Positions 15,342 to 48,733 of a stretch of DNA of 64,000 nt are shown here, piece after piece (within the stretch, counting starts at the first letter, position 1; each line of letters opens with the position of its first letter). The position numbers and the translations under genes were made by a program. The stretch lies in assembly GCA_963575745.1 (NCBI GenBank), contig CAUYUJ010000192.1, positions 372,001-436,000 on the forward strand. Direction: 5' to 3'. This DNA comes from Prorocentrum cordatum (taxonomy: Eukaryota). The notes under the pieces were generated by a model. It was not told where the DNA came from. It did not search any database and worked only from the letters and a program-made list of their open reading frames with translations.

Positions 15342-15529
15342 TTCCTCAAGCTAGGCGCGGCCACCATTCAACATACCTGAGACGGACGATACATTTTTTC
15401 TGAGGACGCGTCCTTACACAGGACGAGGTGCACTTGAGATACTATAATGCTGAGCTTGCGTGGCAGCTACGGGAAAAGGACCCGGGCCCGGATCAAATTA
15501 CCAGAACAGACTGCGTAGCATTGGCTCCC
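15342..15529 (-). repeat. Split direct repeat B2 (3' terminus)
   Basis: 188 bp, near-identical to 15683-15871 (a few substitutions and one indel). Confidence 0.95.
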
Positions 15530-15547
15530 CAAAGTGGGTAGGGAGGG

Positions 15548-15682
15548 AAGCCTTGAAACCAGAATGGCCGCGAGAGGGGAGAGCAGCAGCAGGGGCGACA
15601 AGCAGAGGAGAAAGAAGGAAGGGGTGGAGCCCCTCTCGCTTGGCCGCTCGACGCGGAGGAAAACTGCATCCAAAGATAATCA
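15548..15682 (-). repeat. Split direct repeat A2
   Basis: 135 bp, identical by eye to 22451-22585. Confidence 0.95.
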
Positions 15683-15871
15683 TTCCTCAAGCTAGGCGCG
15701 GCCACCATTCAACATACCTGAGACGGACGATCCACTTTTTTCTGAGGACGCGTCCTTACACAGGACGAGGTGCACTTGAGATACTATAATGCTGAGCTTG
15801 CGTGGCAGCTATGGGAAAAGGACCCGGGCCCGGATCAAATTGCCAGAACAGACTGCGTAGCATTGGCTCCC
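15683..15871 (-). repeat. Split direct repeat B1
   Basis: 189 bp copy of B directly abutting A2. Confidence 0.95.
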
Positions 15872-15880: not shown

Positions 15881-17209
15881 TCATTTGTCATTGGGTGGGC
15901 GGGTTGGGAAGAAACAGGAAAAAGAAGAATATTCGCTAGGCGCCCGACTCGAACAAGCCACGCGAGAGACGAGGTGCCGCAGGTCCGCCGCCGTGAAGTG
16001 GGCAGCGCGCTGGCGGGCGGCGGCGGGCACAGCCGCACGTTGACGCAGGAGTGAGCCGTGCTTTTCATAGATGCGCGCAGACTCTCGAGCGCGCCATCTT
16101 CCTCGCTGCTGGATCTGATCCAGGCTGCGCAATTGCTCTAAGGCATCGCGCGAGGGGCCTCCGTGCCGAAGCTGGTGAGGCACGGAGAAAACGTGGCAAA
16201 GGCCCAAGTCAGAGGCCACGCCTCGCACCATCCTCTCGTATGCGCTGAGATTCAAAGGAGCAGAAAGCTTGGCCGCGTCTGCTCGGCCCCTACGGAGGGC
16301 AAGCAGCGCCGCCGGAACCTGACGCCTGAGGGGGACAGGCGTGCCAGCAACGACAGCGCGGTCGAACTCATTCGTCTTGGGGGGCACTCCGCCTGTGAAA
16401 GGCGCGATGATGACGGAGACCTGGCCCCCCGCACTGCCGTGGACGTCGCCCGCGGTGATGGAGAGCACCTCACTGGGCCGCAAGTACAGATCAAACTGGA
16501 CGATCATGGCCACGGCGGCGAGGGCCCCCAGTGGCGAGCGCTCCGAGAGGGCTGCCATGCAGGCGACCACGGCGTCGAAGGGGGCGGGCATCCTGGGATG
16601 CCGAGGCAGCTTGGCGCACCAGCCCGCCAGGGCGTCCTTGGATCGCACGAATTGAGGCTTGGCCACTGCCCATCCACGTAGTCGAGCAAGGCCGTAGAGT
16701 GCATTGCGAGCCATGTACTGAGGGGAACCAGAGAAGAAAAGGTGCTCGATGTACAGGTTCTTTGTCGTGTCGGCGTTCTTAGGGTCGTCAAAGAGAAGAC
16801 GCCGGCGCCGGGCCCAGGCCTCGAAGTCGGCGACCGCCTGCTGATACTTTGTCAGGGTCGCTGGCCGCAACGAAGCCGCGCGTAGGAAATCTCCCGGAGG
16901 CACTCGACGAGCTTGCCGCTGCTGCTCGGCGCGGTCCACGGCCGCTGCCGCTCGCCTGCGGCGCTCTGCCGCCAGCGCCCGACGGCCCCGCGCCTGGCCG
17001 CCGCCTGGGGGCGGGGCGGCGCCGCGAGGCCCGCCCGCCGCCCGCGGGGCGGGGGCGCGGGTCGAGCGCGGAGGCCCAGGCGGCTCGCCAAGGGAGCCTG
17101 AACCTCCGCGGGCAGAGCGGGAGCCCAGGGGCGCGGAGGCGGACCTCGCCCGACGCGGCTGCCAGGACGCCATCCCAAGTCGCGAGGTCTCGGGGCGTGG
17201 CTTGGCCAT
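15881..17209 (-). CDS. Tyrosine recombinase (phage-integrase family) of the retrotransposon
   Basis: Catalytic set: YLRPSE (R), PKTNEFD (K), PHQLRHGG (HxxR), RGRW (W), RIYEKHG (Y); N-terminal core-binding-like helices (TLTKYQQAVADFEAW). Start uncertain (ATG 17209 or 17173); overlaps the 3' end of pol in another frame. Confidence 0.9.
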   Translation of the reverse strand: MAKPRPETSRLGMASWQPRRARSASAPLGSRSARGGSGSLGEPPGPPRSTRAPAPRAAGGPRGAAPPPGGGQARGRRALAAERRRRAAAAVDRAEQQRQARRVPPGDFLRAASLRPATLTKYQQAVADFEAWARRRRLLFDDPKNADTTKNLYIEHLFFSGSPQYMARNALYGLARLRGWAVAKPQFVRSKDALAGWCAKLPRHPRMPAPFDAVVACMAALSERSPLGALAAVAMIVQFDLYLRPSEVLSITAGDVHGSAGGQVSVIIAPFTGGVPPKTNEFDRAVVAGTPVPLRRQVPAALLALRRGRADAAKLSAPLNLSAYERMVRGVASDLGLCHVFSVPHQLRHGGPSRDALEQLRSLDQIQQRGRWRARESARIYEKHGSLLRQRAAVPAAARQRAAHFTAADLRHLVSRVACSSRAPSEYSSFSCFFPTRPPNDK

Positions 17210-20200
17210 AGGCGGACCTCGGGGCGGAGAGGGAGGCGATGCGCACGAGCTCTCGGCACCGCTCTGGGAGGTACGCGCCAGCCAAGGTAGTCCGCCAAAC
17301 CCAACCCCTCGTCGGATGTCGGACTTTGCCCTGAAGAACTTCCCGATGCGGCTGGCAGCACTGGCAGCGGCGGCCCAGCAGCTCCAGGCTGGGGAGCGCG
17401 CCGGCGATCGCCCCCGGCTTCTTGAAGGGCGCCCCGAAGCGGCAGGAGTCGTACTCGATCCTGCCGGGCCTGTGGTAGCGGAGCTCCCTCTCCAGGGGGC
17501 GCCAGCGCCAAACACGGCTGGGGCCAGGGTTCTCGAGGAGAACGAAAATGTCGAGCTTCCTGCAGAGCTTGAGCACCCGCACGGCGAAGCTGACAAGAGC
17601 GAGGTCTGCCGGCCGAGGGGGCCGATTGCCCCCGGCCGGCACCCAGTGGGCACACGGAAGGCCAATATGTATGCACCAAAAGCGGCGCTGGGTAATCCAA
17701 GCCAAGATAGTGTTACGGACTCCAGGATGCGCGAGGTCGCGATGCTTGCCGTGCGTGATGTCCAGAGGGCAGGCGATGCGAAGACCGGCCTCGTGGAAGG
17801 CCCCCGATAGGTTCGCGCCTCCGGCAAATAATTCCAGGAAGCTGGTGCGCCCAGTACGGTGGCCCCGCGGGGCCGTGGACGAAGACCCCGAGGAGCACCA
17901 CTTACGAGGCCCGCTGCAAGCCCGAGGAGGAGCCGAAGAACTTGATGACCCAGTTTTGGGACCTTGACTTGGCGTTGATGCCGATGGCCTGGCCCACGAC
18001 GCCCAAGAAGCCGAGGACGCAGGGGGCCCAGCCAGGGGTCGCTGATGAGCCGATGCCGTTGGAGTCCCAATGCGAGGCCAGTGGCCCGACGTAGAGCTCG
18101 ATGGCCCGATCTGTGAACGATAACCTGTAAGTGGTGTCGATGAAGTAGAGCACGATGGAGGAGGGGAAGGACAGGATGGGAGCACCGACTCAGCTGGGGT
18201 GGTAGAGAGGATGATCCCTTGTGCGAGGTCCTCGCTCCACTGTCCAGTGCAACCGATAGGTTTCTCCCCAAGCCCTGGCGGCTCGGAGACGCGGCTCGAG
18301 GTAGGCCGAGTCGCGAAGGCAACGCTGGCGACGGGGGAGGGCCCGGGCACGTCAGGCCCTGGGCCGGGCAAGCTGCCGCTGGGCCCCACGACGGGGGCGC
18401 CCCTGCTGGGCGCCGGCGGGCAGGCCCTGAAGCCGGCCCCGCGGAGCCAGCCAGGCAGGAGCTCACGGCGGTCTGCGGCCCGGCTCCCCCAGTCGGCAAC
18501 GTTCACACATCCTGGAACGTGTCGCACTCGCCACGTGATCTCGGCGCCCAGCTGCAGGGCGCCAGCGCGACGACATTGGGCGAGGAGCTCTCGGTTGCTG
18601 GCACGGCCCTTCGCGAAAGACAGCACGCTGGAGAGGTTGTCAGAGAGGCTCAGGAGCTCGGCCCCACGGCAGTTGGCCTGCCGGGCGGCGGCCCCCAACC
18701 CGATCACCGAGGCCCGCGCCTCCAGGCTGTGGATGCGGCCTGGATGGCGCCAGGCGCCGCGGAAAGCCTCGGCCCACCGCTGCGGGTCGACCAGCTCGGG
18801 CGGCAGCGGGGGCGGGGGGGGGCCCACCTCCATCTCCTGGCGACGGCGGCGGGCTCGCGCCTGTCGGCGGGGACGTCCCGCGCTTGCGTCGCCGAGCTCG
18901 TCATAGTACAGGTCGGAGACGTCGTCCAGCCCTGCAGCGCGGCCCAGGTAGGCGCCCCCGTCGGGGTCGCCCGAGACCTCGACCTCCTTGAAGCGCTGCC
19001 TCTCGCGCCACCGCGACACACCAAGGACCTCGTGCCCCAAGAGCTCGGCCTCGCAGACGGCGTAGCCCAGCATCGAGCTGTCCGTGGTAAAGGACACCGG
19101 CGCAGGGGGTCGGCGCAGGTCCACCTGGCCAAGAAACACGAGGCCAGCGGCGCAGCGAAGCTCCGTCACCACGCTGGGCGGCAAACGGGAGACGCCCTCC
19201 ATCGGGCCAGACTCGAAGTAGGCGTAGCACTCGCCCAGGACACTGAGGGCAGGCCGCATGATGCTGAAGTAGTGCACGATGTGCCCCAACAGCCTCCTGA
19301 CCTGCCAGCGAGCCAGCCGCGGCCTGCGTAGAACCTCATGTAGACCAAGGTACAGGCGCCAGGCTCGCCGAGAGGTGCGGCGAAGGCGCCCGTGCCGCCC
19401 GTCGAACTCGAGACCGAGAATACCCTGGGACAAGGCGGCGTGCTGCAACTCGTGCCAGCGCAGCCCCCTCTTGTCCAGCTCGTCCGTCACGGCGCCGAGG
19501 CGCTGGTCGAGCTGGGCGGCGCCCAGGGAGATGAGGTCCGCGTTGTCGACGTAGGGCGCGTGGGCGACCCCCCCGTTCAGCAGGGGGGGCGGCTTGCCCT
19601 TGTCCAGGCACCAGGAGTCCTTCTCCCCGAAGACGGCACCCATGGTGTCGATCAAGACCTCCTGGCAGATCCACAAGGCCCAGGGCCATCCCATGGGAAG
19701 GGCCTCGAAGCAGGGCCAGACTCGAGAGTCCGGGCTGATGTCGATGTAGCGGCCGAGATCCTCGTCGTGCAGCTGAGTCACCCCCAGCTCGCCGGCAGAC
19801 ACCTCGATGTCGAAGCACATCCAGGAGCCCCAGGCCGGGTGGCGAAACTGGTAGAAGCCATCCTGCAGGTCCACCGAGCCGGCCACCAGGTCGCCCCCGT
19901 TGATCACGATGTCCAAGTCGTCGGGGCCGAGGTCGGTGGCGTCCACGAGGCTGATGGCCGCGAGCGCCTCACCTGCGGCCAGCGCGGTCTTGGGCGGGAG
20001 TCGCTGCAGTTGATTAGCCTGCCGAGCGCCCAGCACCATCCTCTGATCCCCGTTCTTCCTACGCGCGAAGAACGCGGAGATGCACGACTTCCGACGGGCC
20101 CGAGCACCCACGAGCCCCCGTAGGGCCAGTGCACGAAGAAAGGCCACGAGCGCAGGGCGCGTGCCGCGCCGGCGCGGGTCGAGCTGCGGGCCCCAGTAGG

Positions 20201-20441
20201 GTTGCACCAACGGCTCGTCCTCGGTGAGCTCGGAGAGCGGGCGGACGACGGCAGAGTCGAAGTTGGCCATCACATCCCTGACGCTCTGAGGGGCCACGTC
20301 GTCGAGTGGCGTTGAAAAATGTTCCTCACGTAGGATGTTGAGGCGGCTCGGATCAAAATCGACCACGGTCGTGGACGCGTCGAGGCCACCGTAGACGCCC
20401 CTGGTCCTGAGGAGCTCCTGTAGGGCTCCAGCGCCATCCAA
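16788..20441 (-). CDS. pol: Pol polyprotein: reverse transcriptase + DIRS-type RNase H + C-terminal C5-cytosine methyltransferase
   Basis: RT: SVDLQDGFYQF, LPMGW, YVDN (19553-19542), ILGLEFD. RNase H: FTTDSS, IHSLEARA, LSDNLS, HVPGCVNVADWGSR. MTase: FLELFAG, GLPC, LLENP. The true N-terminus probably extends upstream through frameshifts to about 20780. Confidence 0.92.
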   Translation of the reverse strand: MDGAGALQELLRTRGVYGGLDASTTVVDFDPSRLNILREEHFSTPLDDVAPQSVRDVMANFDSAVVRPLSELTEDEPLVQPYWGPQLDPRRRGTRPALVAFLRALALRGLVGARARRKSCISAFFARRKNGDQRMVLGARQANQLQRLPPKTALAAGEALAAISLVDATDLGPDDLDIVINGGDLVAGSVDLQDGFYQFRHPAWGSWMCFDIEVSAGELGVTQLHDEDLGRYIDISPDSRVWPCFEALPMGWPWALWICQEVLIDTMGAVFGEKDSWCLDKGKPPPLLNGGVAHAPYVDNADLISLGAAQLDQRLGAVTDELDKRGLRWHELQHAALSQGILGLEFDGRHGRLRRTSRRAWRLYLGLHEVLRRPRLARWQVRRLLGHIVHYFSIMRPALSVLGECYAYFESGPMEGVSRLPPSVVTELRCAAGLVFLGQVDLRRPPAPVSFTTDSSMLGYAVCEAELLGHEVLGVSRWRERQRFKEVEVSGDPDGGAYLGRAAGLDDVSDLYYDELGDASAGRPRRQARARRRRQEMEVGPPPPPLPPELVDPQRWAEAFRGAWRHPGRIHSLEARASVIGLGAAARQANCRGAELLSLSDNLSSVLSFAKGRASNRELLAQCRRAGALQLGAEITWRVRHVPGCVNVADWGSRAADRRELLPGWLRGAGFRACPPAPSRGAPVVGPSGSLPGPGPDVPGPSPVASVAFATRPTSSRVSEPPGLGEKPIGCTGQWSEDLAQGIILSTTPAESVLPSCPSPPPSCSTSSTPLTGYRSQIGPSSSTSGHWPRIGTPTASAHQRPLAGPPASSASWASWARPSASTPSQGPKTGSSSSSAPPRACSGPRKWCSSGSSSTAPRGHRTGRTSFLELFAGGANLSGAFHEAGLRIACPLDITHGKHRDLAHPGVRNTILAWITQRRFWCIHIGLPCAHWVPAGGNRPPRPADLALVSFAVRVLKLCRKLDIFVLLENPGPSRVWRWRPLERELRYHRPGRIEYDSCRFGAPFKKPGAIAGALPSLELLGRRCQCCQPHREVLQGKVRHPTRGWVWRTTLAGAYLPERCRELVRIASLSAPRSAYGQATPRDLATWDGVLAAASGEVRLRAPGLPLCPRRFRLPWRAAWASALDPRPRPAGGGRASRRRPAPRRRPGAGPSGAGGRAPQASGSGRGPRRAAAASSSSASGRFPTRGFVAASDPDKVSAGGRRLRGLGPAPASSL
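17240..17845 (-). other. C5 DNA methyltransferase domain within Pol
   Basis: Motif I FLELFAGGANLS, motif IV GLPC, motif VI LLENP, motif VIII-like CRFGAPFKKP, motif X-like LAGAYLPERC, in canonical order. Confidence 0.82.
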
Positions 20442-20850
20442 GTCGGTGGGCCGATCTCCAAAGGCCCCGATCCGACGGCGGATGCGCCTGAGCGCCGACT
20501 CTTGAGCGATGTCGGCGCTCCCAGGGGCCGAAGCACGACGCCCCTCCCAGCACAGGCGGCGGCCATCCCATTGAGGGTCGTGATCGCCTCGATGGCACGG
20601 GCCGAACGACGATCAGCAGCGGCAGCACGCTGTGCCTTATACCGAGGCAAAGCGGCACGTTCCCCTTCGCGGTGGATGCGAATAGAAGGCGTCCGTGACC
20701 GGAAGCGGGAACAAAGATGGGGCCCCCGCGAGGAGGAACCCTCGACGGGGAGGCAGCCGCGGTCCAAGGTGGAGGCCATGGTGACGCGGTGCGCCGACGG
20801 CCGCGGCGGAGGTCGCCACGGCCGAGGGGGGCGCGGAGGCCCCCGGCTCG

Positions 20851-22032
20851 CTAACCAGCACCGCCAGGCCCAGCCCCGGCCTTGCCCTTCGGCTTGGCCT
20901 TGGGGCGCGGGGGCCTTGCCTCGTCCCTCTGCTCGTTGCGGTACTTATTGTCCTCGTGGTCGGCCTCCTCCCTGTACATCCTCTCCTGCTTGAGAACGGT
21001 GCTCCTCGCCTTCTGCTGGTCGGCGACCCAGGCATCGAACTTGGTCGTGACCGCCCCGCCCGAGTCGTCGAGCCGACTCGAAACCATCAGCTCCAGGCCC
21101 TCGAAGGAGGGGCGGCGAGGGCAACGCTTGACTGCCCTCTGAATCTGGAGGCCCCGGCGGCTCAGGAGCTCGAACGAGGCGAGGTTCGAGACGTCCAGCG
21201 CGTCGAAGACCAGGGCGTGGTGCAGGACCTCGACGATGTTCTTCAGCTCCTGGGCCACCGCACTGCCACGCGCGACGCCCGACTGGGCCACCCAGAAGCC
21301 CCAGTAGGACGAGAGCGAGTGCCCAGAAGAGACCACGGCAGCCAGAAACTCGACCAGGGCCTTGGGGCCCTCGAAGGGCCAGTCGTCCACGTCCACGCTC
21401 CTCAGCAGGGCCACCAGCTGCGCCAGAGAGACGGTCTGAGCGGAGACGCCCGTCTGCGGCAGCACTCGGCGGTCCCTGCCAGGACCGGCCCTCTTCTCCG
21501 CCTTCCAGTCGGGCTCGTCGGTGAGCTGGACGTTCTCGGCGGCGACCCAGCCCTCGGCCTCCGACAGCATCACGAGAGCGACGGCGTCGCGGCTGATGAA
21601 GCGCTCCGCCGAGGTGATCAGCTCCAGGCTCACCTCCTCCCCGAAGTGGTCGCTCGCGGGGTCGGAGACGATCCACCTCGGGACGTCGACCCCCGCTTGC
21701 ACCGCAGGGAGGGGAAAGCCCAGCACCTTCGCGAAGTTGCGGCCGTCGCGGCGGAGGTCGGAGAGGTCGGCGTCCGAGAGGGCTCCAAACGCGTAGACCT
21801 GGCCTCGGACTCGCTGGGGAAAGGTGGCCGCCCGAGGAAGGGCGACCACTAGGTACTCGTCCAGCTTCAGAAGATAGATCTCGGCGTCGGGCGCGGCGGC
21901 CACCCAGTGTCCAGGCGTGGGAGAGGGAACCAAAAGAACTCTGTGGTGCCATCTGAAGTTCGGGTCGTCGTCGAACGCGATGCAGACCTGGCTCTCGGAG
22001 ATGTCGAGAGTCTCCGGCCCCCGCGCGAGCCA
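20851..22032 (-). CDS. Gag-like ORF1 of the retrotransposon
   Basis: Frame is open for 393 codons from the TGA at 22035-22033 (..PETLDISESQVCIAFDDDPNFRWHHRVLL..), with strong GC3 bias, lying upstream of pol and ending in a basic tail. Gag is called from position only; there is no in-frame ATG at the 5' end. Confidence 0.65.
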   Translation of the reverse strand, partial: WLARGPETLDISESQVCIAFDDDPNFRWHHRVLLVPSPTPGHWVAAAPDAEIYLLKLDEYLVVALPRAATFPQRVRGQVYAFGALSDADLSDLRRDGRNFAKVLGFPLPAVQAGVDVPRWIVSDPASDHFGEEVSLELITSAERFISRDAVALVMLSEAEGWVAAENVQLTDEPDWKAEKRAGPGRDRRVLPQTGVSAQTVSLAQLVALLRSVDVDDWPFEGPKALVEFLAAVVSSGHSLSSYWGFWVAQSGVARGSAVAQELKNIVEVLHHALVFDALDVSNLASFELLSRRGLQIQRAVKRCPRRPSFEGLELMVSSRLDDSGGAVTTKFDAWVADQQKARSTVLKQERMYREEADHEDNKYRNEQRDEARPPRPKAKPKGKAGAGPGGAG

Positions 22033-22428
22033 TCAGCCACGGATGGCCCTAGGCCAGGAGGCAGGAGCGGCAGCGCCGTCGCCTGGCGGACGAGCCGGCG
22101 CCCGCGAGGTGAACCCGTGCAGGATGGCTGCGACGGGGGCGCAGGCCGCCAGCGCCGCCACGGCGCACAGCACGCCCAGGACCCAGCCCAGCACCAGCCA
22201 CGAGACCCAGTCCAGCGACGCCGGGACGGGGATCGGGCAGGACAGCTCGGGGCAGGGCCGAACGTCAGGCGCTGCCGGGCACGCCACGGCGGGCGCCGGC
22301 GGGCAGTTGCCGCAGGTGACGTTGACCGATCCGCAGGGAGGACAGGCCGGGCAGGCAGGACACCGGCTGGCCCGGACTGAAACCAGTGCCGCGCCCCACT
22401 GCCCGAGAGCCGCGAGGGGAACGGGCAT
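22033..22428 (-). CDS. Small Cys/Pro-rich single-pass membrane protein (ORF0) of the retrotransposon
   Basis: 131 aa: MPVPLAALGQWGAALVSV, CPACPACPPC..NVTCGNCP..CP..CPELSCP, hydrophobic helix WVSWLVLGWVLGVLCAVAALAACAPVAAIL; ATG lies 23 nt inside repeat A1's inner edge. Confidence 0.6.
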   Translation of the reverse strand: MPVPLAALGQWGAALVSVRASRCPACPACPPCGSVNVTCGNCPPAPAVACPAAPDVRPCPELSCPIPVPASLDWVSWLVLGWVLGVLCAVAALAACAPVAAILHGFTSRAPARPPGDGAAAPASWPRAIRG

Positions 22429-22450
22429 GCGGAGCGGCGCAGGCCCTTGC

Positions 22451-22585
22451 AAGCCTTGAAACCAGAATGGCCGCGAGAGGGGAGAGCAGCAGCAGGGGCG
22501 ACAAGCAGAGGAGAAAGAAGGAAGGGGTGGAGCCCCTCTCGCTTGGCCGCTCGACGCGGAGGAAAACTGCATCCAAAGATAATCA
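22451..22585 (-). repeat. Split direct repeat A1 (5' terminus)
   Basis: 135 bp, identical to 15548-15682. Confidence 0.95.
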
Positions 22586-24871
22586 GAAATCTGGAGTATC
22601 AGTGCCGCGCCCGCCGGACGACCCACGGCCCCTAGCAGCGTGCTGCTGCGCCAAGGAGGCACCAGGCTCTTGGAACCCCCGCGGGACAGAGCGACGCAGC
22701 GCGTGCGTGCCACCGATACGCACTCCCCAGAGATCCGATGCCGTGATTCTGTCCGATACGAGGTCCCCGGAAGTCTCGACCCACTCCCCAGGACCGATTT
22801 TTCCTCCTGAATCGTTGTTTGACGGTCCCGGGACCCCGCGAGGGCCCCTATAGGCCGTAAATTGCGAAAAGCCTGCGCCTTGATTGTTCTCAATGCGTTG
22901 GACCTCTGGGTTATCCCTCGCGGGCGGGCGGGCAGGTGGCGGCGCGCGCGCGGGAAGGCACGCGGGCGCGGCACAGGGCGGAGACAGCCCGCCCAGACCC
23001 GAGGCCGCTTGGGCCCCTCCGGGCCCGGCCCGGCAAAACTCACGGGGCTGGCCCTTGGGCGCGTGCGGCGGGCGGGCCGCAACCAGCGCCAGCGCCCACG
23101 GTTCCCTTCCTTGCGGGCACGCTCAAAAATTATATGTTTTGTGGGTGAGCGTCTTCTGATTGGGCGTTTCGACATGGAGCGGAAGCGGGGGGGAGGGTCT
23201 GGCTCCAGACCTCTGCTTCATGCAACTGATTGCAGCAGTGCTTCCTGTGGGGGCAGGCTCCACCTCCAAGATCTACTCTATGGGAGGGGAGGGAGGGTGC
23301 GAGGGCCCGCGCCGATCGGCAAAACAACGAATCAACAAACGATCACTTGCAAGGACCGACCACAACGATGTTTGAAGCGCGTTGGCGTGTAAGGTCGAAA
23401 ACGAAAAAGAGTCCGAGCGTTTACAGCGAAACGTTCGAAACGATAACTACGGGTGCAAGCAAGCACGAAAACGACACGATGCCGCTCCATGGGCCAAGCA
23501 AGTGCACCAAGCGCCAGCATGGGTTAGGGATCCGTGGAACTGGCGCGTGGTCGCCAGATCCACGAAGTGGGGGCAATGTCCCTCGAAGCATCGCGCCAAC
23601 GCAGCCTCAATTAGCGACGCAAGGCGCCGATCCTGCATGGAAACGGGGGTCTTCGCCGATGAACGGGCCTGAGGCCATGTTTAGCGCTTCGTTGATCCGT
23701 CCTCCTCCTCCTCCTCCTCCTCCTCCTCCTCCTCCTCCTCCTCCTCCTCCTGCAGAGAGGCCTCTGAAGAACATATCTCCGCGCCACCGCACCGGCGAGA
23801 GACCTCTGGGCCTCGGCCCGATCTTTCCCAGGGCGCAGCCTTCGCTCGGGAGGCCGGCGGAACAGCACGCCGCGCCCCGCCAGACTCTCCCGCGCCCAGG
23901 CAGAACTGAGGGGCCACGATGTGCACGGTTTCCCCCGGGGCCGCAGGCGACCCGAGGAGGAGGAGGAGGAGGAGGAGGAGGAGGAGGAGGAGGAGGAGAT
24001 GGCGGAGGAGGAGGAGGAGGAGGAGGAGGACGAGGAGAAGGAGGAGGAGGAGGAGGAGGAGGAGGAGGAGGAGGAGGAGGAGGAGAGGGAGGGGTCGCCT
24101 AAGCCCTTCGGAGAAACCCTCCACCACGATGGGGGGGCTTGGCTCTGGGGGGAGAACATCGACCTGTAACTGGCGATGCATCGCCGACAGAGCGGCGGAG
24201 CAGGCCCCCGGCAGCGAATCCGAACACGCTCCTGGGCGGGGGGAGCTGCCACGCCCCTGTCGGCGAGCAGTGTGCGGTCGGGAGGCGATTCGTCCCCCCT
24301 GAGCCTGTGCCCCCTCACGTTGTCGCCCCCGAGAAACTCTTGGGCAACGGACGCCGCCGCCCCCGGCCTGCCCCCGGCTTCTTTTTCTCGTTGTCCTCTC
24401 GGAGCGGACTCTGGACATTGCCTTGGCTGCACCCCGGGACTAGGCCCGCATAGGCGGGCCTCTGGCACAGGAAGTGCCCCGCGAACGAATTCGAGGCTGG
24501 CTAGCTTCTGAGAACCTCTCTGTTCGCTCGAAGCGGACTTTGAACGTTGCCTGGGCTGCACCTCGAGACTAGGCCCGCTTCGGTGGGCCTCTGGCACAGG
24601 AAGTGCCAGCGAACGAACTTGAAACTGACTGGCTTCTGAGAAGAGAGTCTGTCCGCTAAAAAAAAGCCTCTGCTCTGTTCAGGAATCTGCCCAAGCATGC
24701 TGCCAGTTGCGAACACCGCCAGGCTTAATTCAGCCTGCCGAACACAACTGATTCAGACTGATCGACGCACGGCCGATCGATCGGAAGCACCGCCGGGCAC
24801 AGAGGCCTTCAAAAAATGCCCTCGTGGCACAGCTCAGGGCACACACGGAGGCGGCACTTGCAGCGCGGCCC

Positions 24872-25760
24872 TCAGGCGAGAATGGGGACGTACCCTTCGG
24901 GAACCGCCGTCCGAGCCGCGGCGCTGCGGGACCGCCGCCACATCGCGAAGCCCGCCAGCAGCAGAGCGGCGAGCAGCGCCGCCGCGCAGCCCAGCCTGAG
25001 CGCGAGGGCGCCGATGCCCGCGGGGGCACCTCCGAAGGGAGCTTCGAAGGGGGACATCGAGGACCTCGCCTCTGCGTCGGCGTCGACGCGCGCGGCGTGC
25101 TTCGCGTTCGCCATGGCCTCCGCCTCTGCGCGCCCGCGCGCCGCGCGCTCCGCCTTCCGCTGCGCGACCACCGCGGCCTCCCTGCGAGCGCGCCCCTCCG
25201 CCTCGCTCTCCGCGGCCTCGACCGCCTCGCTCTCCGCGATCCGCCTGGCCTCCTTCTTCGCCTCGTGCTTCTTGGGCGCCTCCGCCTTGGCCCTCGCCTC
25301 CGCCTTTTAACGGGCGAAAAACGATATAAAATAAACTTTTTCGCTGTCGGGGGCGCCTGTCCCAGGGCGGCTGGAAAGTTTATACCCTTACGGTGGCACT
25401 GTAGGGGTATAAACTTTCCAGCCGCCCAGGGACAGGCGCCCCCGACAGCGAAAAAGTTTATTTTATACTGCTCTTCGCTCGCTGAGCCTTGGCCTTGCCG
25501 ACGGCCGTGGCCTCCGCGTCCGCCGTGGCCTCCGCGGTGCCGGTGCGCTCCACGGTGACGTCCCCGCGCGTCACGCGGGCGGTGGCCGTGGCGTCGGCCG
25601 AGGCGCTGGCCCGTGCCGTCGCCCTGGCGCGCTCCCGAGCGGTCGCGGTGGCCGTGGCCGTGACGTTCGGCCGCTTCTTGTGGTGGCTCTCGTGGTGCTC
25701 GTGCCCGAGGCCGACGACGGGGAGCGCGAGCAGCAGAGCCACCGCAAGGCGGAGAGCCAT
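24872..25760 (-). CDS. Two-exon gene (25760-25488, 25303-24872) for a 234 aa Ala-rich type I membrane protein
   Basis: Signal-peptide-like MALRLAVALLLALPVVGLG, Ala/Glu/Thr-rich stalk, TM LGCAAALLAALLLAGFAMW followed by RRSR, and tail GYVPILA*. Splicing a GC-AG intron joins the exons in frame (GKAK|AEARAK). Confidence 0.75.
25304..25487 (-). mobile_element. Introner-like palindromic intron (GC-AG)
   Basis: 71 bp arms (25325-25467) with 3 mismatches and a 1-nt loop, plus looser outer TIRs; flanked by an AAGGC direct repeat that supplies both splice sites. Confidence 0.8.
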
Positions 25761-25855
25761 TTGTGAGCGGCTGCCCCCCCCCTTTGTGCCTAGAGAGCCG
25801 CTTCGCGCGGGGGAGAGGCCAGCCGGTGGGCCAAGAGCCTCTGAGCCGGGAGGGT

Positions 25856-25865
25856 CTTGAGCCAA
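25856..25865 (-). other. Relict spliced-leader 3' end upstream of the membrane-protein gene
   Basis: Reverse complement TTGGCTCAAG equals the last 10 nt of DinoSL, ~95 nt before the ATG. Confidence 0.5.
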
Positions 25866-26809
25866 GCCTACCCCGGGCCTCATGGACTCACGGGCGCCAT
25901 GCTCGCTGGAGGGCACGCTCCGCCGCAGGAGGCCACCGCGCGCGCGAGGGCTCCCTGCGGCACGCGTAATGTTACCACACGGGATGTGCGCGTGCGACCG
26001 CCGTGCCAAGAGGAGCGTCAGACAGGGAACGGAGCCCACTTGTGGCCCCAAGAGCAGCAGGGTGCACGAGGAGCGCTGGCCGCTGCAGGAACAGCGAGCC
26101 CTCTCCGAACCCGAAATGCTCCCTATGACTGCGTCTTGGCACCTCTTGGGTGCAACAACCAGCCTGGGCTCCGAAGGATGGTGCGCCCCTGCGCTGCACG
26201 AGCCTCGGCACTCTAGCGAACGCGGGGCAGGGCTGCGAATCAACCACAAACCCCTCAGCGGCGCAGGCGGTCCTGCTGTGAACAACCGTGCCGAGGGCAG
26301 GCACAGCCTGGCAGTCAGAAGGCGGTCCTTCTTGCCACAGCACGGCAAACAGCCAACGAGACATCGGAGGTGCCAGAAGTGAGCCACGTCATCCCCTGGT
26401 GCTCTTGGAGCTGAACACGACGGCGAGCGTGAACGGCGTCTGAGGCGGTGGATCGGCGACGAGCCCAGGGGGGAGGAAGTCTGAAGGGGCGGGCATGCTC
26501 AGAAGGCTCCATGGCCTGCTGGGAATAGCTTCCTCTGTCCTCCCCGAGGGCACAGAGCGAGAACTTCTCGGAAGGCCGGAGGGCTTCTGAGAGGCCCCGC
26601 CGCCTCCTGAGAAGGCCTTCTCCTTCCCTTCCCCCCCCTCGCTCGTCGCCGCGAGGAGGAGGAAGACGGCGGAGGTAGCCAGAAGACGTGGAGGCGGTGA
26701 TGAGGCACCGCTTGGTGGCAGCGAGAGCGGCGACGCGCTCGGCGGCGGGGGACCTCCCAACCGACCCCCAGAGAACCGCAGCTGCGCCTCTGGCCCAGCC
26801 CACCTCGGG

Positions 26810-27033
26810 GATCTACTGACCTGGGTTACTCCAGACCCGGGTCAGTCGGGCCTTGCAGGATCCTGCAAGACTCAGCAGGGCCCTGCACCCGAGCCCGGGT
26901 CAGTGCGCCCCTGGCCCTGCAAGATCCTGCAAGAGCACCCAACCCTGGACCGGGGCGCACCTGGCTCTGCAGGATCCTGTCAGATCCGGCGCTCTGGCTG
27001 ACCCCCGCTTGCATGACCCCCGTCTCTTGAGAC
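26810..27033 (+). repeat. Dispersed repeat rich in ctgca(a/g)gatcctg, copy 1
   Basis: Homologous to 30365-30525; both start gatctactgacc..cccgggtcagtc. Confidence 0.75.
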
Positions 27034-27227
27034 CCGGCACACCTGGGGGACAGCCCACCCGTTGGCGTGCAAAGCCTGGCGCCCCCAGCCCGAGGCGGGA
27101 TGCGTCCGCGAGCAGGGGCGCCTGCCGTATAGTCTCCGCAGCTGCCGACGGCGCCACCGCGGCGCCAGCAGAGCCACAGCCCCGCCGTGTGCCCCAGGCC
27201 GGCCGGCACACGGAAGGGGGGCGAGGA

Positions 27228-27357
27228 CCCTGACCTTCCAGGAGGGCTAAAAAATAGCACCAGGACCTCGATATCTGAATTCCAGTCGAGGTTTTAGGCA
27301 GCCCAGATAGGTCCATAGGTCTGGAGGGCTATTTTTTAGCACCCTCGAAGGTCAGGG
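27228..27357. mobile_element. MITE-like inverted-repeat element
   Basis: ccctgaccttccaggagggctaaaaaatagc / gctattttttagcaccctcgaaggtcaggg. Confidence 0.7.
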
Positions 27358-27741
27358 GAGAAGGCGGGGAATAGGGGCAGGAATGACTACAGTGCGGGCG
27401 CGGCCGCAAGAAACCCTCGCAAGAAGCCCAACCCTGAAGACACGCACGCGAGGTGCACCTGAGGGGAAGACCCAGAGCACCCCGAAGGCAGCAGCTCCGT
27501 CCACAGTTGCGGGAAGTCACTGCGCAGCGCGCGGAGCGAAGAAACCCAAGATACCCTGACGAAAAGCACATGGTTTCTAGATGTGCGCACCACCCACTGT
27601 GCGCGATCGTGTCGATGACAGAAACGGCCCAGAGATCAGACGTGCCGACCGTTCGGCCGCACTCGAACTCGAACCGCGGAGAAACGTTCCCTGAAGAGAG
27701 GCTCCAGATGGGCCCTCCTGGCATCGCTCGGAGAATGGGAA

Positions 27742-28222
27742 GAGGAGGAGGAGGAGGAGGAGGAGGAGGAGGAGGAGGAGGAGGAGGAGGAGGAGGAGGA
27801 GGAGCAGGAGAAAGAGGGAGAACAAGAAGGCCAGGAGGTGGAGGCCAAGCAGGCCAAGGAGGAGGTGGAGAAGGAGGCCAAGGAGGAGGAGCAGGGGGAG
27901 GAGGAGGAGGAGGAGAGGAGGAGAGGAGGAGGAGGAGGAGGAGGAGGAGGAGGAGGAGGAGGAAGCAGGAGGGAAAGAGGGAGAACAAGAAGGCCAAGGA
28001 GGAGGTGGAGGCCAAGCAGGCCAAGGAGGAGGTGGAGAAGGAGGCCAAGGAGGAGGAGCAGGGGGAGGAGGAGGAGGAGGAGGAGGAGGAGGAGGAGGAG
28101 GAGGAGGGGGAGGAGGAGGGAGGCCAAGCAGGCCAAGGAGGAAGGAGGCCAAGGAGGCCAAGGAGGGAGGCCAAGCAGGCCAAGGAGGAGGGGGATGAGG
28201 GAGGCCAAGGAGGAGGTGGAGG
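27742..28222. repeat. (GAG)n microsatellite with interspersed ggccaag units
   Basis: Direct reading of the sequence. Confidence 0.9.
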
Positions 28223-28970
28223 GCAAGAGTGACAACGAGCGAGGCGCGGCCGGCCCCAAGGGACGACGAGGGGTGCGCCTCTTGCTATGGCCGCCCCCCG
28301 GACCTCCGGCCCCGGGCGCGACATGGCCAGCCGTACGCTCCAGCCCATTGAGTGCGGGACGCAAGCGGGTGCCCTGAATGAGGAGCAACGAGTGGAGGGG
28401 GGGAATCGGCATATGTGAAGGGGCCCTGGGACACACAAATAAATAGACACAAAGAACAGGCTTCCCCATGTTTTCCCATATGTTTTGGGTTTCTGTCTTC
28501 CCCCGCACTTCCCATATTTTCCCATATTTTCTTGGGAATCGACGATGAAGTTTGTCTGTGTGTTTTTTCCCCTCCTCATCCTCCCCCCCCGCACTTGCCG
28601 CCCGGCGGCGGGCGAGGAGAGCCGTGGCCAGCTGCGCCAGAGCCTGGCTGGGCCCGCTCCAGGCACGGGGTCGGCGCACGTGCCATCCCAGTCCCCCAAC
28701 GCCATGATTTGTTTTCTTTTTTTGCTGCGTCGACCCTCACAAAAGTCTGGGCCCCTTCCCCAGGACCGCTCGTGCACCCCGAGTCCGCGTCTGGCGGCCC
28801 CGAGGCCCGGTCAGGGCCCCCCGGGGGCCGACACCGGTGCAAAAACTTCCGTCGTGATGTTTTATCACAGCGCGAGGGGGCCTGGGCTCCTGGCCGAGCC
28901 AGAGAGGCGCATATGCCCCGATCCTGGGCCCAGCGGGCGGGCCTGGCCAGGCTCGGCGCCTGTGCACGTA

Positions 28971-29118
28971 GGGGGCCACAGGCGAACCCTACCCCTTACC
29001 TCCCACGATTTCTGAGGGGGAGGGTGGGGTTCACTTCGTTCGGGAGGTCACGAGCGAATTGAAGCCCCCCCCCCTCAAAAATCGTGGGGGGTAGGGGTAG
29101 GGTTCGCATATGGCCCCT
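28971..29118. mobile_element. MITE-like inverted-repeat element, TA-flanked
   Basis: ggggccacaggcgaaccctacccct..cccacgatttctgagggg pairs with cccctcaaaaatcgtggg..aggggtagggttcgcatatggcccc. Confidence 0.7.
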
Positions 29119-30364
29119 TAGAACGGCCCCCCGCCCTCTGCCAGCAGGCACTGCAGGCGGCGTGGCCGCCGGCTGCCGCTGCGGCCGCGGCCGCGGCGGC
29201 ACGCGCCCGCCGCACGGCGCCTCCGCCGCGCGGAGGGCGCGGCGGAGGCGCTGAAGGGGTGCGGCCAGCGGCCCGGGAGCCCGCCTGGACATCCGCATCC
29301 CAGCGGCCCGAGCGAGGTGGGCAGCATGGCCGCCTCAGCACGGCCGGCCGATCTGATGCCATGCGCAGCTGCCCACGAGCCACCGGCCACCTGCTTCACG
29401 AGGGCCACGCGCCTGTGAAGCAGGTGCACGCGATGTCCAACCACCCCCTGCGCCCGCAGTGGGCTCGCCTGCAGGCGCGCAGGCTTGACCTGGACCTTGA
29501 CCCTCCCTCACTCCATGCGCAGCATGCTCACCCGACCGGAGGGGGGAGGCTCGCGGCGGCGGCGGCGGCGGCGGGCGCCTCGGCGGCCTGGTTGGCCGCG
29601 GGCAGCCCCCCTGGCGGGGCGGCAGGCGGGGCCCGCCCGCCGCGGGCGCAGGCGGCCGCCGTGCGCAGCGGCGCGCCGAGGGCGCTCAGTTGGAGTGCCC
29701 GGCGCGCCGCGCCGAATCGAAGCGGCCGCGCCCGCCCCGCTCCCCCTTTTCTGCAGCTTCGGCGCACGGCGCGCGGCAGCTGGACACTCCCAGGGAAGCT
29801 CGGCGGAGCGCGCCGCGCGCCACGCGCTCGATGCTGCCACGGGGGGGCCGCCCCAGGCCCGCCTGCCGGGCGGGCGCGCGGCCGGGAGCCCGCCGTCCGC
29901 GCCGGGCGCCTGCCGTCCGCGGTGGTGGGCCCGGGAGCGCGCGGGCCAGCGCGCGCGCGCGCGCGTGGCCGACGAGGGGCGAGGCTCGAGGCCCGCCGAG
30001 GGCTCGCCCAAGCGCCGAGGCGCTGGGGCGGGCTCGCTCTGGGCGCTGCCGACTGCGCGAGGCAGCCTCCGCCCTGCCCGTGCCCTCGCCGCGCCCCTCT
30101 GCGGCCCTCCCCCCTCCCTGCAGAGGCTCTGGGGAGGAGGTGCCCCGACTCTGGCCCGCCTCCCCGGCTGGCGGGCCCGTTTAGCCCCCGTACTCCCTCG
30201 GCCTCCTCCGCCTTCCGCAGCCTCCGCGCGGCAGGTGCCACCGCGGCGCGGCCGCAGCGGCCACCGTGGCCGCGGTGGCAGCCGCCGCTGCGGCCGCGGC
30301 CGCTGCGCGGCACCTGCCGCGGCGCGGAGGGTGCGCAAGGCGGAGGGCCCGTGGCCCCTGGCCC

Positions 30365-30525
30365 GATCTACTGACCCGGGTCAATGCAGACCCGGGTCAG
30401 TCAGGCATTGCAAGATCCTGGAAGATCCTGCAGGATCCTGCACCCAAGCCCGGGCACATTGCGCCCCTGGCCCTGCAGGATACTGCAAGATCCGACGCTC
30501 CGGCTGACCCCCGTCTCTTGAGCCC
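30365..30525 (+). repeat. Dispersed repeat rich in ctgca(a/g)gatcctg, copy 2
   Basis: Homologous to 26810-27033. Confidence 0.75.
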
Positions 30526-47976: not shown

Positions 47977-48733
47977 AGCAATGCAAAGCAACCAAACCAA
48001 AGCACAAAATGGCCTAGAGCTGGCTCCGGGCACCCAAAATGTGGCCTGGGCGTTGTGTTCTGGGAACACGAAGAGCACAAAGTGGCCTACTGTTGGCTCC
48101 GGGCACTCACGATGTGGCCTGGGAGTGGTGTTCTGGCAAGATGCATCGTGATTCCAGACAAGAGTTTCACACTTTCCAACGTTATGATTTGTTGCGTCCT
48201 AGCCTGGCTAGGACGAAACGAACATGAAAGCCACGAAGTGCGATAGGGTTGCAACTTTCCAACGTTATGAATGCCTTTTTGGAGCTCTGGTGCAGGACAT
48301 CCCCACAAAAACGACGCCGTTCGTAACGTTGAAATTTCTTGAATAAAGAATATTCGAATATTCTTATTCAAGCGTTTCCAACGTTACGAACGGCGTCGTT
48401 TTTGTGGGAAGTCCTGCACCAGAGCTCCAAAAAGGCATTCGTAACGTTGGAAAGTTGCAACCCTATCGCACTTCGTGGCTTTCATGTTCGTTTCGTCCTA
48501 GCCAGGCTAGGACACAACAAATCATAACGTTGGAAAGTGTGAAACTCTTGCCCGGAATCACGATGCATCTTGCCAGAACACCACTCCCAGGCCACATCGT
48601 GAGTGCCCGGAGCCAACAGTAGGCCACTTTGTGCTCTTCGCGTTCCCAGAACACCACTCCCAGGCCACATCTTGGGTGCCCGGAGCCAACTCTAGGCCAT
48701 TTTGTGCTTTGCTTTGCGTTGCTTTGCATTGCT
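47977..48733. repeat. 757 bp spacerless palindrome (first of one per array unit)
   Basis: Centred on aagaatattcgaatattctt (48355/48356); arms pair out to agcaatgcaaagcaac / gttgctttgcattgct. Confidence 0.92.

Follow-up and report, generated by a model that had tools for sequence, protein, structure and literature searches.

A conserved small ORF for a putative Cys-rich membrane protein upstream of the Gag-position ORF in a tyrosine-recombinase retrotransposon of Prorocentrum cordatum

INTRODUCTION

Retrotransposons of the tyrosine-recombinase class (YR, DIRS order) are described with a Gag-like ORF, reverse transcriptase (RT) with RNase H and a tyrosine recombinase, to which some add a methyltransferase or hydrolase. 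Some retroelements encode a membrane protein beyond gag and pol, such as Env in retroviruses and errantiviruses and the products of env-like ORFs in LTR elements of plants and animals; Env is a large SU/TM glycoprotein whose gene lies 3' of pol and which carries fusion machinery, with a fusion peptide and heptad repeats in the retroviral type. The reovirus FAST proteins (p10, p14) belong to a 100–200 aa class with a bitopic N-out/C-in plan and a hydrophobic patch in a small ectodomain; the p10 ectodomain contains Cys and p14 has a proline-rich tail. Overlaps of a stop with a start codon drive termination–reinitiation in silkworm SART1, influenza B BM2 and the caliciviruses.

Three further systems bear on the locus described here. 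The sORF2 protein of the Drosophila MDG1 group (412, Mdg1, Stalker2) occurs at the plasma membrane together with capsids and has been called FAST-like (Voichek et al. 2025, PMC11952523). In the available text of that article it is the product of a small ORF (∼70 aa) upstream of gag, with a single central transmembrane (TM) segment, an N-terminal ectodomain and a cytoplasmic tail, conserved within its family and with no detectable sequence family. The SymbioDIRS-Dnmt3 element of Symbiodinium has an A-coding-B-A-B layout, a Pol whose RT escapes Pfam and a separate YR ORF, and neither 'gag' nor 'transmembrane' occurs in the main text of its description (PMC5890265); dinoflagellate DIRS RTs align poorly with Pfam seeds, as the available part of the same work reports (de Mendoza et al. 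2018). In hypovirus CHV1 the upstream stop overlaps the downstream AUG by one base as UAAUG (PMC2699510, available text).

Here we analyse ORF0, a small ORF in a window of 64,000 nt (the whole stretch of DNA analysed) from the dinoflagellate P. cordatum. ORF0 agrees with sORF2, as far as the available text describes the latter, in its position upstream of gag, its predicted TM, ectodomain and tail plan, and its conservation within a family that has no detectable sequence relatives elsewhere. The two differ in that sORF2 belongs to Ty3/gypsy LTR elements of an insect whereas ORF0 belongs to the YR/DIRS order in a unicellular dinoflagellate, and ORF0 is 131 aa long, has a CPxC-rich ectodomain with nine Cys and a stop that overlaps the gag-position start, and lacks the MG motif and the polybasic patch. 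At that junction UGAUG stands where CHV1 has UAAUG, and here the upstream ORF would encode an accessory membrane protein; unlike both published cases, ORF0 is known from sequence alone. ORF0 shares the size class and the predicted bitopic plan of the reovirus FAST proteins but has no acylation motif or polybasic region and far more Cys, and it sits in a retroelement rather than a dsRNA virus. It likewise resembles Env as a putative retroelement membrane protein beyond gag and pol, but is only 131 aa long, is encoded 5' of gag and has no match among Env families. The element as a whole is built like SymbioDIRS-Dnmt3, which comes from another host genus, although the DNMT domain of the latter has no Pfam-matching counterpart in the Prorocentrum Pol. 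A preliminary description of the locus had known of no membrane protein in YR retrotransposons, and we found none described in the open literature.

RESULTS

ORF0 lies at the 5' end of a DIRS-order element

The host element is a YR retrotransposon on the minus strand, running from 22585 to 15342, with the following parts (window coordinates):

22451..22585, minus strand: repeat A1, the split direct repeat at the 5' end, identical to 15548-15682 at 135/135 nt
22033..22428, minus strand, stop included: ORF0, candidate gene for a Cys-rich membrane protein, defined by the reading frame and the relatives P0007-P0010
22031..22035, minus strand: stop–start overlap TGATG, read from the sequence, in which the ORF0 stop shares its A with the Gag-position ATG
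22018..22022, minus strand: C-run (G-run on the coding strand) that in this copy is longer by one base, so that the ATG and the body of the Gag-position ORF are in different frames
20851..22033, minus strand: Gag-position ORF (ORF1), frameshifted near its start; frame open from 22032 to 20854, first in-frame ATG at 21570
16788..20270, minus strand: Pol-like ORF with putative RT and RNase H-like parts, 1160 aa, 84% identical to the pol part of P0010
15881..17209, minus strand: putative tyrosine recombinase ORF, with a Phage_integrase match in Pfam that falls short of the cut-off (E 0.019; 15.2 bits against 27.1)
15342..15871, minus strand: 3' repeats B1 (15683-15871), A2 (15548-15682) and B2 (15342-15529); identity is 97.9% between the B copies (189 nt) and 100% between the A copies (135 nt)

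The split direct repeats are thus arranged as A1-body-B1-A2-B2, with B1 adjoining A2, which is the arrangement of the DIRS order. ORF0 starts 23 nt inward of A1. The preliminary description had reported an extra ORF in the 5' repeat region of a DIRS-class element, and both halves of that statement hold, since the repeats are A-body-B-A-B and the ORF is conserved.

The Gag-position ORF has six relatives with 49–92% identity and belongs to no Pfam family; the AlphaFold2 model of its protein (mean pLDDT 47.5) was too poor for a fold search. Neither Pfam nor a PDB sequence search gave a match for Pol. RVT_1 is present in its nearest ESM Atlas clusters, in 34% of members of one with a score of 0.98 and in 91% of members of the one at rank 19, and the RT motif C position reads YVDN instead of YxDD. 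Motifs like those of a DNMT were seen at the Pol C-terminus by eye only, and DNA_methylase did not match the C-terminal 390 residues even at E up to 10. In the recombinase the weak Phage_integrase match extends over profile positions 12-167 of 172, and by eye the translation contains the R, H-x-x-R and Y motifs as LRPSE, HQLRHGG and RIY.

ORF0 is conserved in free-standing and fused relatives

ORF0 runs from an ATG at 22428-22426 to a TGA at 22035-22033 on the minus strand and encodes 131 aa, in line with the coordinates and length given before. Its parts are:

22369..22428, minus strand: residues 1-20, mildly hydrophobic N-terminus (Kyte-Doolittle, AlphaFold2, invariant residues)
22234..22365, minus strand: residues 22-65, Cys/Pro-rich core with nine Cys and the sequon N36-V-T38; all nine Cys are invariant in this copy, P0007 and P0008 and present in P0009 and P0010
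22120..22209, minus strand: residues 74-103, predicted TM segment (Kyte-Doolittle and AlphaFold2 helix)
22036..22119, minus strand: residues 104-131, Arg/Pro-rich tail ending in WPRAIRG; in the alignment its middle is variable and its last seven residues are invariant

The Cys/Pro-rich segment had been credited with eight Cys; we counted nine (C23, 26, 29, 32, 39, 42, 50, 59 and 64), and two more lie within the TM segment. The N-V-T sequon and the short tail (28 residues) were described correctly.

Two proteins from the databases, P0007 and P0008, are each exactly 131 aa long, 69–70% identical to ORF0, and have the same start and the same C-terminal WPRAIRG. A partial protein, P0009, is 92% identical over 78 aa. 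P0010, a P. cordatum gene model, is 81.7% identical over 109 aa; like P0004 below it is an automatic model known as a protein alone (P0010 in a spliced form, P0004 in a fused form). Length, start, stop and the nine ectodomain Cys (9/9 invariant) are therefore shared by relatives, as one would want for the conservation of the ORF raised in the preliminary description, and the substitutions in the TM segment between this copy, P0007 and P0008 are conservative; these relatives were drawn from protein databases that hold intact ORFs only, so their intactness carries an ascertainment bias. Compared with this copy, P0010 is 81.7% identical in its ORF0 part, 90.4% in its Gag part and 84.4% in its Pol part. 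Because ORF0 and Pol give 81.7% versus 84.4%, ORF0 evolves about as slowly as Pol.

A sister family has the same module as an in-frame fusion at the N-terminal end of its Gag-position protein (P0004). Residues 1-134 of P0004 align to ORF0 with a Smith-Waterman score of 152, compared to 50.9 ± 9.1 for 2000 shuffles, none of which (0/2000) reached the observed score. Both proteins read SRCPACP at residues 21-27 and have the motifs RCPACP, VTCG-CP and PCP in common, and M1, P4, A6, G9, W11 and A13 are invariant with P0004 included. The remainder of P0004 is a Gag-position protein with 59% identity. Its hydrophobic segment is weaker (Kyte-Doolittle 1.52) and contains an Arg. A Cys-rich module in the equivalent position of a related family, which the preliminary description had thought worth seeking, is thus present in P0004.

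ORF0 has the predicted plan of a bitopic membrane protein

The strongest hydrophobic 19-mer of ORF0, residues 78-96, has a mean Kyte-Doolittle value of 2.53, and the corresponding values in this ORF0, P0007, P0008 and P0010 range from 2.36 to 2.53. AlphaFold2 places a helix at residues 71-106 (block pLDDT 77–91), so that hydropathy and model both bear out the strong TM helix noticed earlier. The mildly hydrophobic N-terminus is also as described: residues 1-22 average 0.72 in this ORF0 and 0.67–0.88 across the family, and the AlphaFold2 model has a helix at residues 5-19 with low pLDDT. This region could be either signal-peptide-like (a cleavable signal) or a hydrophobic patch of the ectodomain.

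By the positive-inside rule the positively charged flank of a TM segment lies on the cytosolic side. In this ORF0, P0007 and P0008 an Asp precedes the TM segment and His/Arg follow it; these flanking charges, taken by themselves, fit a predicted N-out/C-in topology. We infer this topology, together with disulfides in the protein. A myristoylation motif (MGxxxS/T) was absent, since all members begin with MP. Directly after the TM segment there is no polybasic patch but only H104, R109 and R113, and the start of the tail, HGFTSRAPAR, contains one His and two Arg among its ten residues without a cluster.

Such a plan could belong to a small fusogen like FAST or sORF2, with which capsids or RNPs would pass between cells (for example at gamete fusion or during contact in blooms) in an Env-independent transfer, horizontal or from cell to cell. 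The predicted plan indeed recalls that of sORF2 (small ORF upstream of gag, one TM segment in the middle, ectodomain on its N-terminal side, tail in the cytoplasm), and at 131 aa ORF0 has both a hydrophobic stretch in its presumed ectodomain (residues 5-19) and a Pro/Arg-rich tail. We consider this reading unlikely, however, as neither the N-terminal MG motif nor a polybasic cluster beside the TM segment is found, and in a unicellular host the soma-to-germline logic of sORF2 does not apply. FAST proteins are, moreover, too divergent for a test by sequence homology, according to the available text of PMC11952523. The in-frame fusion to Gag in P0004 would suit a tether better than a free fusogen. 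By the same fusion, the proposal of the preliminary description that the protein could tether capsids to membranes gains support, although of an indirect kind. The wider idea that a dinoflagellate YR lineage has a disulfide-rich membrane protein of its own for Env-independent transfer of particles from cell to cell seems improbable to us.

The ORF0 stop overlaps the start of the Gag-position ORF

A stop–start overlap of the type seen in termination–reinitiation pairs is present at 22035 to 22031 (TGATG). A contig of run X1 that spans the overlap has no listed difference at those bases, and the relatives of the Gag-position protein start at its ATG (P0001 begins with MVRAQPETLD). Logan contigs of run X1 have one base fewer than this copy, at 22014 or 22019, and when one base is removed from the frameshifted start, the ATG frame reads MARAGPETLD, which matches P0001. 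The preliminary description had noted neither the overlap nor the frameshift of this copy. The AUG of ORF0 stands in a weak context (C at both -3 and +4). No ATG lies between the start of ORF0 and that of the Gag-position ORF, but this is not significant (P of zero 0.21–0.45). A fusion of ORF0 with the Gag-position ORF by -1 frameshifting was considered and rejected, as the frame is open for only five codons before the ATG and no slippery heptamer was seen by eye.

These features raise the question of whether the peptide matters at all. ORF0 might be a uORF or cis-acting leader, with its translation, or SRP-mediated targeting to the ER, regulating or localising synthesis of the Gag-position protein through UGAUG. 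The overlap itself, the weak AUG context and the invariance of the last seven codons while the rest of the tail varies would all agree with this, and coupled termination–reinitiation at such pentanucleotides has been documented for the hypovirus (PMC2699510, available text). A leader whose peptide is irrelevant is nevertheless improbable in our judgement: the nine Cys, RCPACP, VTCG-CP and the TM segment are kept across families with Gag-position proteins that are only 59% identical, the module persists as an in-frame N-terminal extension in P0004, and both differences listed for the Cys-rich core in Logan contigs (2/2, at N41 and V56) are synonymous.

Conservation, and not openness, sets ORF0 apart from chance

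The region has a GC content of ∼67–70%, and 42 ORFs of at least 80 aa overlap positions 19000-32000. Counted from an ATG at 23175, the frame of ORF0 stays open for 380 aa; on the plus strand, ORF0 lies within an antisense ORF of 159 aa (21980-22459). The openness of ORF0 alone is not beyond chance; ORF0 is beyond chance because it is conserved in relatives.

Within a tool-selected subset of the differences from the Logan contigs (219 more exist outside the subset), nine fall inside ORF0; six of these are synonymous, and the chance of at least 6/9 is 0.02–0.03. The other three change amino acids (G12S, R19W and A70P), in each case to a residue that occurs in database relatives. The antisense frame shares the wobble positions of ORF0 and also gives 6/9 synonymous. 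GC by codon position is 0.74/0.71/0.83 in ORF0 versus 0.64/0.67/0.70 in the same frame upstream of A1. Synonymous count and GC3 do not separate ORF0 from the antisense frame. One contig of 818 nt (21544-22356) has a single gap, which is located outside ORF0, and the neighbouring A repeat is rich in indels (six in one 110-nt contig). Contigs of the RNA run X3 and of run X4 cover the A repeat and its flanks with no long piece over ORF0, and have no bearing on expression.

ORF0 could accordingly be suspected of being non-functional, that is, an ORF open by chance or in decay within GC-rich DNA, or a shadow of the antisense frame, which entered the databases through ORF callers. The 42 ORFs within 13 kb and the equal synonymous count of the antisense frame speak for this, as do the lack of a matching known family and the damage to this copy of the element by the frameshift at 22018-22022; our view of ORF0 also comes from DNA and predicted proteins. 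We regard it as quite improbable all the same, given two relatives with the same length, start and stop at 69–70% identity, the invariant Cys and conservative TM substitutions, the significant similarity to the N-terminus of P0004, an amino-acid identity on a par with that of Pol in the same copy (P0010), and the absence of indels from ORF0 in the 818-nt contig beside a repeat in which they are frequent.

Searches for distant relatives

ORF0 matched no family in Pfam (E up to 0.1), nothing relevant in a PDB sequence search and nothing usable in the ESM Atlas; P0004 and P0010 likewise had no match in Pfam. A profile of ORF0 searched against 1.84 billion representatives gave 0 matches at E up to 0.001, a weak negative, as members of its own family were not recovered either. 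Neither the Gag-position alignment nor that of ORF0 recovered a relative in metagenome scans, and the Gag-position alignment recovered none from viral contigs either. The viral-contig scan with ORF0 returned 10 loci. Six of these were inspected (L001-L005 and L007) and rejected; they encode AT-rich, giant-virus-like membrane proteins that have only CPACPAC(P) in common with ORF0, and their shuffle z-scores of 6–9 are too high, as that 7-mer was what had singled these loci out. We treat the viral loci as a motif-level resemblance and not as homology. The label 'envelope-like' used in the preliminary description is not supported: Pfam, PDB, the ESM Atlas and the 1.84-billion search gave no homology to support it, and a 131-aa product encoded 5' of the Gag-position ORF is unlike a retroviral-type Env.

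As to origin, the stretch of 17 nt from 22471 to 22455 resembles what we take to be the core of the dinoflagellate spliced leader, and with 26 nt between it and the ORF0 ATG it is placed as at the 5' end of a trans-spliced mRNA. ORF0 might thus have been captured by template switching from the 5' part of such a host mRNA (leader, short UTR, signal, Cys-rich domain and TM segment), one that coded for a secreted or membrane protein. This origin is nonetheless very improbable, since the leader pattern was written after the sequence had been seen (so that its chance estimate cannot be taken as fair), the leader core without gaps is not matched here within three mismatches, no host homologue of ORF0 was found in the protein databases or the 1.84-billion search, and the leader-like stretch belongs to the A repeat, of which the element has a copy at either end.

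DISCUSSION

We conclude that ORF0 is probably genuine, a coding accessory gene whose product is a membrane protein. That its job is the membrane tethering of the Gag-position protein is a tentative suggestion, for which we see a reasonable case but less than even odds. The full reading, in which selection maintains ORF0 as an accessory gene and its membrane product places the Gag-position protein and its RNA at a membrane, has in our estimate a probability of about 0.55.

According to this reading, the ORF0 protein would be bitopic, with its N-terminus and a CPxC-rich segment of ∼45 residues facing the lumen or the outside, one TM helix and a cytosolic Arg/Pro tail. ORF0 would be the 5'-proximal ORF on the element RNA, its UGA overlapping the Gag-position AUG (UGAUG), and because of this arrangement the downstream protein would be made by termination–reinitiation or by leaky scanning past the weak AUG of ORF0. 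The membrane protein may then hold the Gag-position protein and the RNA at a membrane that serves as a platform for assembly or trafficking. We infer both the translation mechanism and the tethering.

If a conserved 5' gene for a membrane protein is coupled to the Gag-position protein or, in one family, fused with it, the life cycle of YR retrotransposons, a little-studied class, would include a membrane step. UGAUG is also a concrete stop–start overlap in an element of the dinoflagellates, in which translation of several ORFs from one RNA is little understood. ORF0 parallels the small TM protein that insect LTR elements encode upstream of gag for cell-to-cell transfer, as described in the available text of PMC11952523. 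If the transfer reading were true, sORF2 and the reovirus FAST proteins would have a protist counterpart in ORF0, some DIRS-order elements would be infectious agents and not strictly intracellular parasites, and this could help to explain the massive spread of retroelements in dinoflagellate genomes.

ORF0 in a DIRS-order element

ORF0 lies on the minus strand, with its ATG at 22428 and its TGA at 22035-22033, and starts 23 nt to the inside of repeat A1 of a retroelement with the layout A1-body-B1-A2-B2. This is the A-body-B-A-B arrangement given for dinoflagellate SymbioDIRS elements in the main text of de Mendoza et al. 2018 (PMC5890265), and in this the two have their repeat arrangement in common.

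Features of the element and of the ORF0 product
22585 to 22451, minus strand: repeat A1, 135/135 identical to A2
22428 to 22033, minus strand: ORF0, product of 131 residues
ORF0 residues 1-20: N-terminus, mildly hydrophobic, no charges
ORF0 residues 22-65: Cys/Pro-rich segment, nine Cys in CPxC-type spacing, sequon N36-V-T38
ORF0 residues 74-103: strongly hydrophobic segment
ORF0 last 28 residues: tail, Arg/Pro
22033 to 20851, minus strand: Gag-position ORF, downstream of ORF0
20270 to 16788, minus strand: Pol-like ORF, 1160 aa
Downstream of ORF0, minus strand: YR candidate ORF, 442 aa, weak Phage_integrase match
15871 to 15683, minus strand: repeat B1, 97.9% identical to B2 over 189 nt
15682 to 15548, minus strand: repeat A2, pair of A1 (135/135)
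15529 to 15342, minus strand: repeat B2, pair of B1 (97.9% over 189 nt)

The 442-aa ORF matched Pfam Phage_integrase weakly and below the cut-off (E 0.019), yet over nearly the full length, and R, H-x-x-R and Y motifs are visible in its translation. Pfam gave no reverse transcriptase (RT) match in the ORFs of the element, in line with the statement in PMC5890265 that dinoflagellate DIRS-type RTs align poorly to Pfam seeds; the nearest ESM Atlas clusters of the N-terminal part of Pol are RVT_1. The database proteins nearest to the Gag-position protein and to Pol carry the label Prorocentrum cordatum. No fold is recognised for the Gag-position protein (AlphaFold2 mean pLDDT 47.5), so that 'Gag' here refers only to its place in the element.

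Several further observations concern Pol and its relatives. At Pol residues ~237-246 (19551-19562 region) RT motif C reads YVDN instead of YxDD, likewise in P0010 (a P. cordatum gene model), and the window's VLGARQAN has G where P0010 and the gene model P0003 have D. C5-DNA-methyltransferase-like motifs (FAGG, PC, ENP) were seen by eye at residues 811-918 (17517-17840), as expected of the SymbioDIRS-Dnmt3 type; a Pfam search relaxed to E 10 gave no methyltransferase match in Pol. Open from 20612, the Pol frame runs in the +1 frame over the last ~240 nt of the Gag-position ORF (20612-20851), and the P0003 and P0010 gene models link the two parts near ...DEAR/TGGADIAQES, which hints at a Gag-Pol frameshift or fusion. 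Two Gag-position relatives, P0004 and P0005, are named 'RING-type E3 ubiquitin transferase' in UniRef; Pfam gives P0004 neither a RING nor any other family, and the name looks like automatic carry-over.

Each A repeat has at its inner end (22455-22471 and 15552-15568, minus strand) a 17-nt stretch, 26 nt upstream of the ORF0 ATG. It resembles the dinoflagellate spliced-leader core; the pattern was set after viewing the sequence, so that the chance estimate made for it is not a fair one.

Plan of the product and chance background

The membrane prediction for ORF0 is based on hydropathy and AlphaFold2. The 19-residue Kyte-Doolittle mean reaches a maximum of 2.53, and AlphaFold2, given a three-sequence alignment, placed a helix at residues 71-106 (block pLDDT 77-91), the remainder being of low confidence (mean pLDDT 54). 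The layout in the preliminary description thus stands, including the mildly hydrophobic N-terminus, the sequon, the transmembrane (TM) segment and the tail, while its count of eight Cys has to be corrected to nine.

By itself the length of ORF0 is unremarkable in the surrounding GC-rich DNA (67-70% GC): the interval 19000-32000 is overlapped by 42 ORFs of 80 aa or more, the ORF0 frame is also open upstream as far as 23175, and on the opposite strand ORF0 is covered by a 159-aa ORF. Elsewhere in the window, long GGA/TCC-type microsatellites (23680-24110 and 27700-28230) give long low-complexity ORFs on both strands, and 48000-61100 is a tandem array of 8-9 copies of ~1.62 kb units, 91-100% identical, each with 354-nt inverted arms separated by 17 nt; an assembly gap of 100 N lies within it (57449-57548).

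Conservation of the protein

Relatives of ORF0 were searched by word-indexed HMMER in a near-length and a longer-length class. The first yielded three proteins from 404 candidates: P0007 and P0008, each exactly 131 aa with 69-70% identity, which share the opening residues and the last seven with ORF0, and P0009, a partial sequence (78 aa, 92% identity) whose EukProt label, a green alga, is taken to be contamination. The second yielded one from 7720, P0010, which over its first 109 residues has 81.7% identity to ORF0. None of the nine ectodomain Cys varies among the relatives, TM substitutions mostly exchange hydrophobic or small residues for one another, and the middle of the tail is variable. 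Compared with the window, P0010 has identities of 81.7% (ORF0), 90.4% (Gag-position part) and 84.4% (Pol), so that ORF0 changes about as slowly as Pol.

The most telling sign of conservation is P0004, which like P0010 is an automatic gene model. In its Gag-position part P0004 has no more than 59% identity to the window's, and in frame with this part it carries an N-terminal extension of ~134 residues of the same plan as ORF0, with SRCPACP at identical residue numbers; the Smith-Waterman score of the two was 152 versus 50.9 +/- 9.1 for shuffles (0/2000 shuffles reached 152). No sequence family matching ORF0 was found in Pfam, a PDB sequence search, the ESM Atlas or a profile search of 1.84 billion representatives.

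Among viral contigs, ORF0 led to ten loci (L001-L010). The six loci inspected (L001-L005, L007) are on AT-rich, giant-virus-like contigs, and their products, membrane proteins anchored at the N-terminus, have a conserved ...VPPVCPxCP... / KCPACPAC... motif; L001 and L003-L007 have a conserved ...DFSxFG end as well, and L002 has CPxCPEAKE repeats after a TM segment. They resemble ORF0 at the motif level only.

Variation at the DNA level

Logan contigs of four sequencing runs were aligned to the window, so that variation is that between the window copy and short contigs. Among the differences listed, which leave 219 more across the whole stretch aside, nine fall in ORF0. Six of the nine are synonymous, all at third positions (P = 0.02-0.03 for at least six, 29-30% of possible changes being synonymous), and the replacements (G12S, R19W, A70P) each introduce a residue that occurs in database relatives; in the Gag-position ORF, by comparison, synonymous changes make up 13 of the 23 differences listed. 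By codon position, ORF0 has a GC content of 0.74/0.71/0.83; upstream of A1 the profile is flat. The antisense frame has its third positions in common with ORF0, and so shares both the 6/9 count and the GC3 signal; what favours the sense frame is therefore the protein-level evidence, not these two measures. Whereas an 818-nt contig from ORF0 into the Gag-position ORF has a single gap (see the junction below), one 110-nt RNA-run contig over the A repeat has six indels. This speaks, too, against the in-frame upstream ATG at 22572 as the conserved start.

Just upstream of the element, 22732-22899 reaches an extreme abundance in run X1, with a summed contig depth of 1100-1385 versus 14-70 over the element, and a marine metagenome run is rich in it too; this stretch is probably a short repeat present in many copies.

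The junction with the Gag-position ORF

At TGATG (22035 to 22031) the TGA of ORF0 and the following ATG share one A, and Gag-position relatives start exactly at this ATG (P0001: MVRAQPETLD). In the window, coding-looking Gag-position sequence runs from 22030, with the first in-frame ATG only at 21570. Four codons past the TGATG start is a run of five C (22018-22022, plus strand), where X1 contigs are one base shorter (at 22014 or 22019); this is the only gap, besides 44 differences, in an 818-nt contig over 21544-22356. With one base removed the ATG frame reads MARAGPETLD, continuous with the ORF body, and therefore the window copy, or its assembly, has one inserted base. Across the family the two ORFs, ORF0 and the Gag-position one, are distinct and lie in different frames, linked by a stop-start overlap. 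The ORF0 AUG has C at -3 and +4; no ATG lies between the two starts, which is not significant (P of zero 0.21-0.45).

Topology and possible role

ORF0 is conserved and very probably a real membrane-protein gene of the element, most likely an accessory one whose product is small and bitopic. By the positive-inside rule the basic flank of a TM segment faces the cytosol. Since Asp precedes and His/Arg follows the segment in the window, P0007 and P0008, the Cys-rich part would face the outside or the lumen, with a cytosolic tail; in the other orientation the Gag-position protein that is fused to the module in P0004 would not be cytosolic. The nine Cys in their Pro-rich stretch suggest a disulfide-bonded stalk, possibly linked between chains. 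As the 5'-proximal ORF, ORF0 would be translated first, and the Gag-position protein would follow through either termination-reinitiation at UGAUG or leaky scanning beyond the ORF0 AUG. The favoured reading of its function is that the ORF0 product would tie the assembly of Gag-position protein and RNA to a membrane.

An alternative is transfer between cells. The preliminary description called ORF0 envelope-like, which its size, position and homology do not bear out. The nearest published analogue is sORF2 of Drosophila MDG1-group LTR elements, described in PMC11952523 as a ~70-aa TM protein whose ORF precedes gag; it localises to the plasma membrane together with capsids and is compared there to the FAST proteins of reoviruses. 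ORF0 resembles sORF2 in position and general plan, but differs in lacking a myristoylation motif and a polybasic patch, in a very different ectodomain, and in element class and host. Alternatively, ORF0 might be a leader serving only to regulate or localise downstream translation. That ORF0 is non-functional is unlikely.

That YR retrotransposons have no known membrane protein held in open-literature searches, which found none reported. The main texts of PMC5890265 and of a 2026 preprint (10.64898/2026.05.21.726589) contain neither 'gag' nor 'transmembrane', and figures or supplements of either might show an unnamed upstream ORF. Retrotransposon-encoded small membrane proteins are already known, and ORF0 would be a further variety of them.
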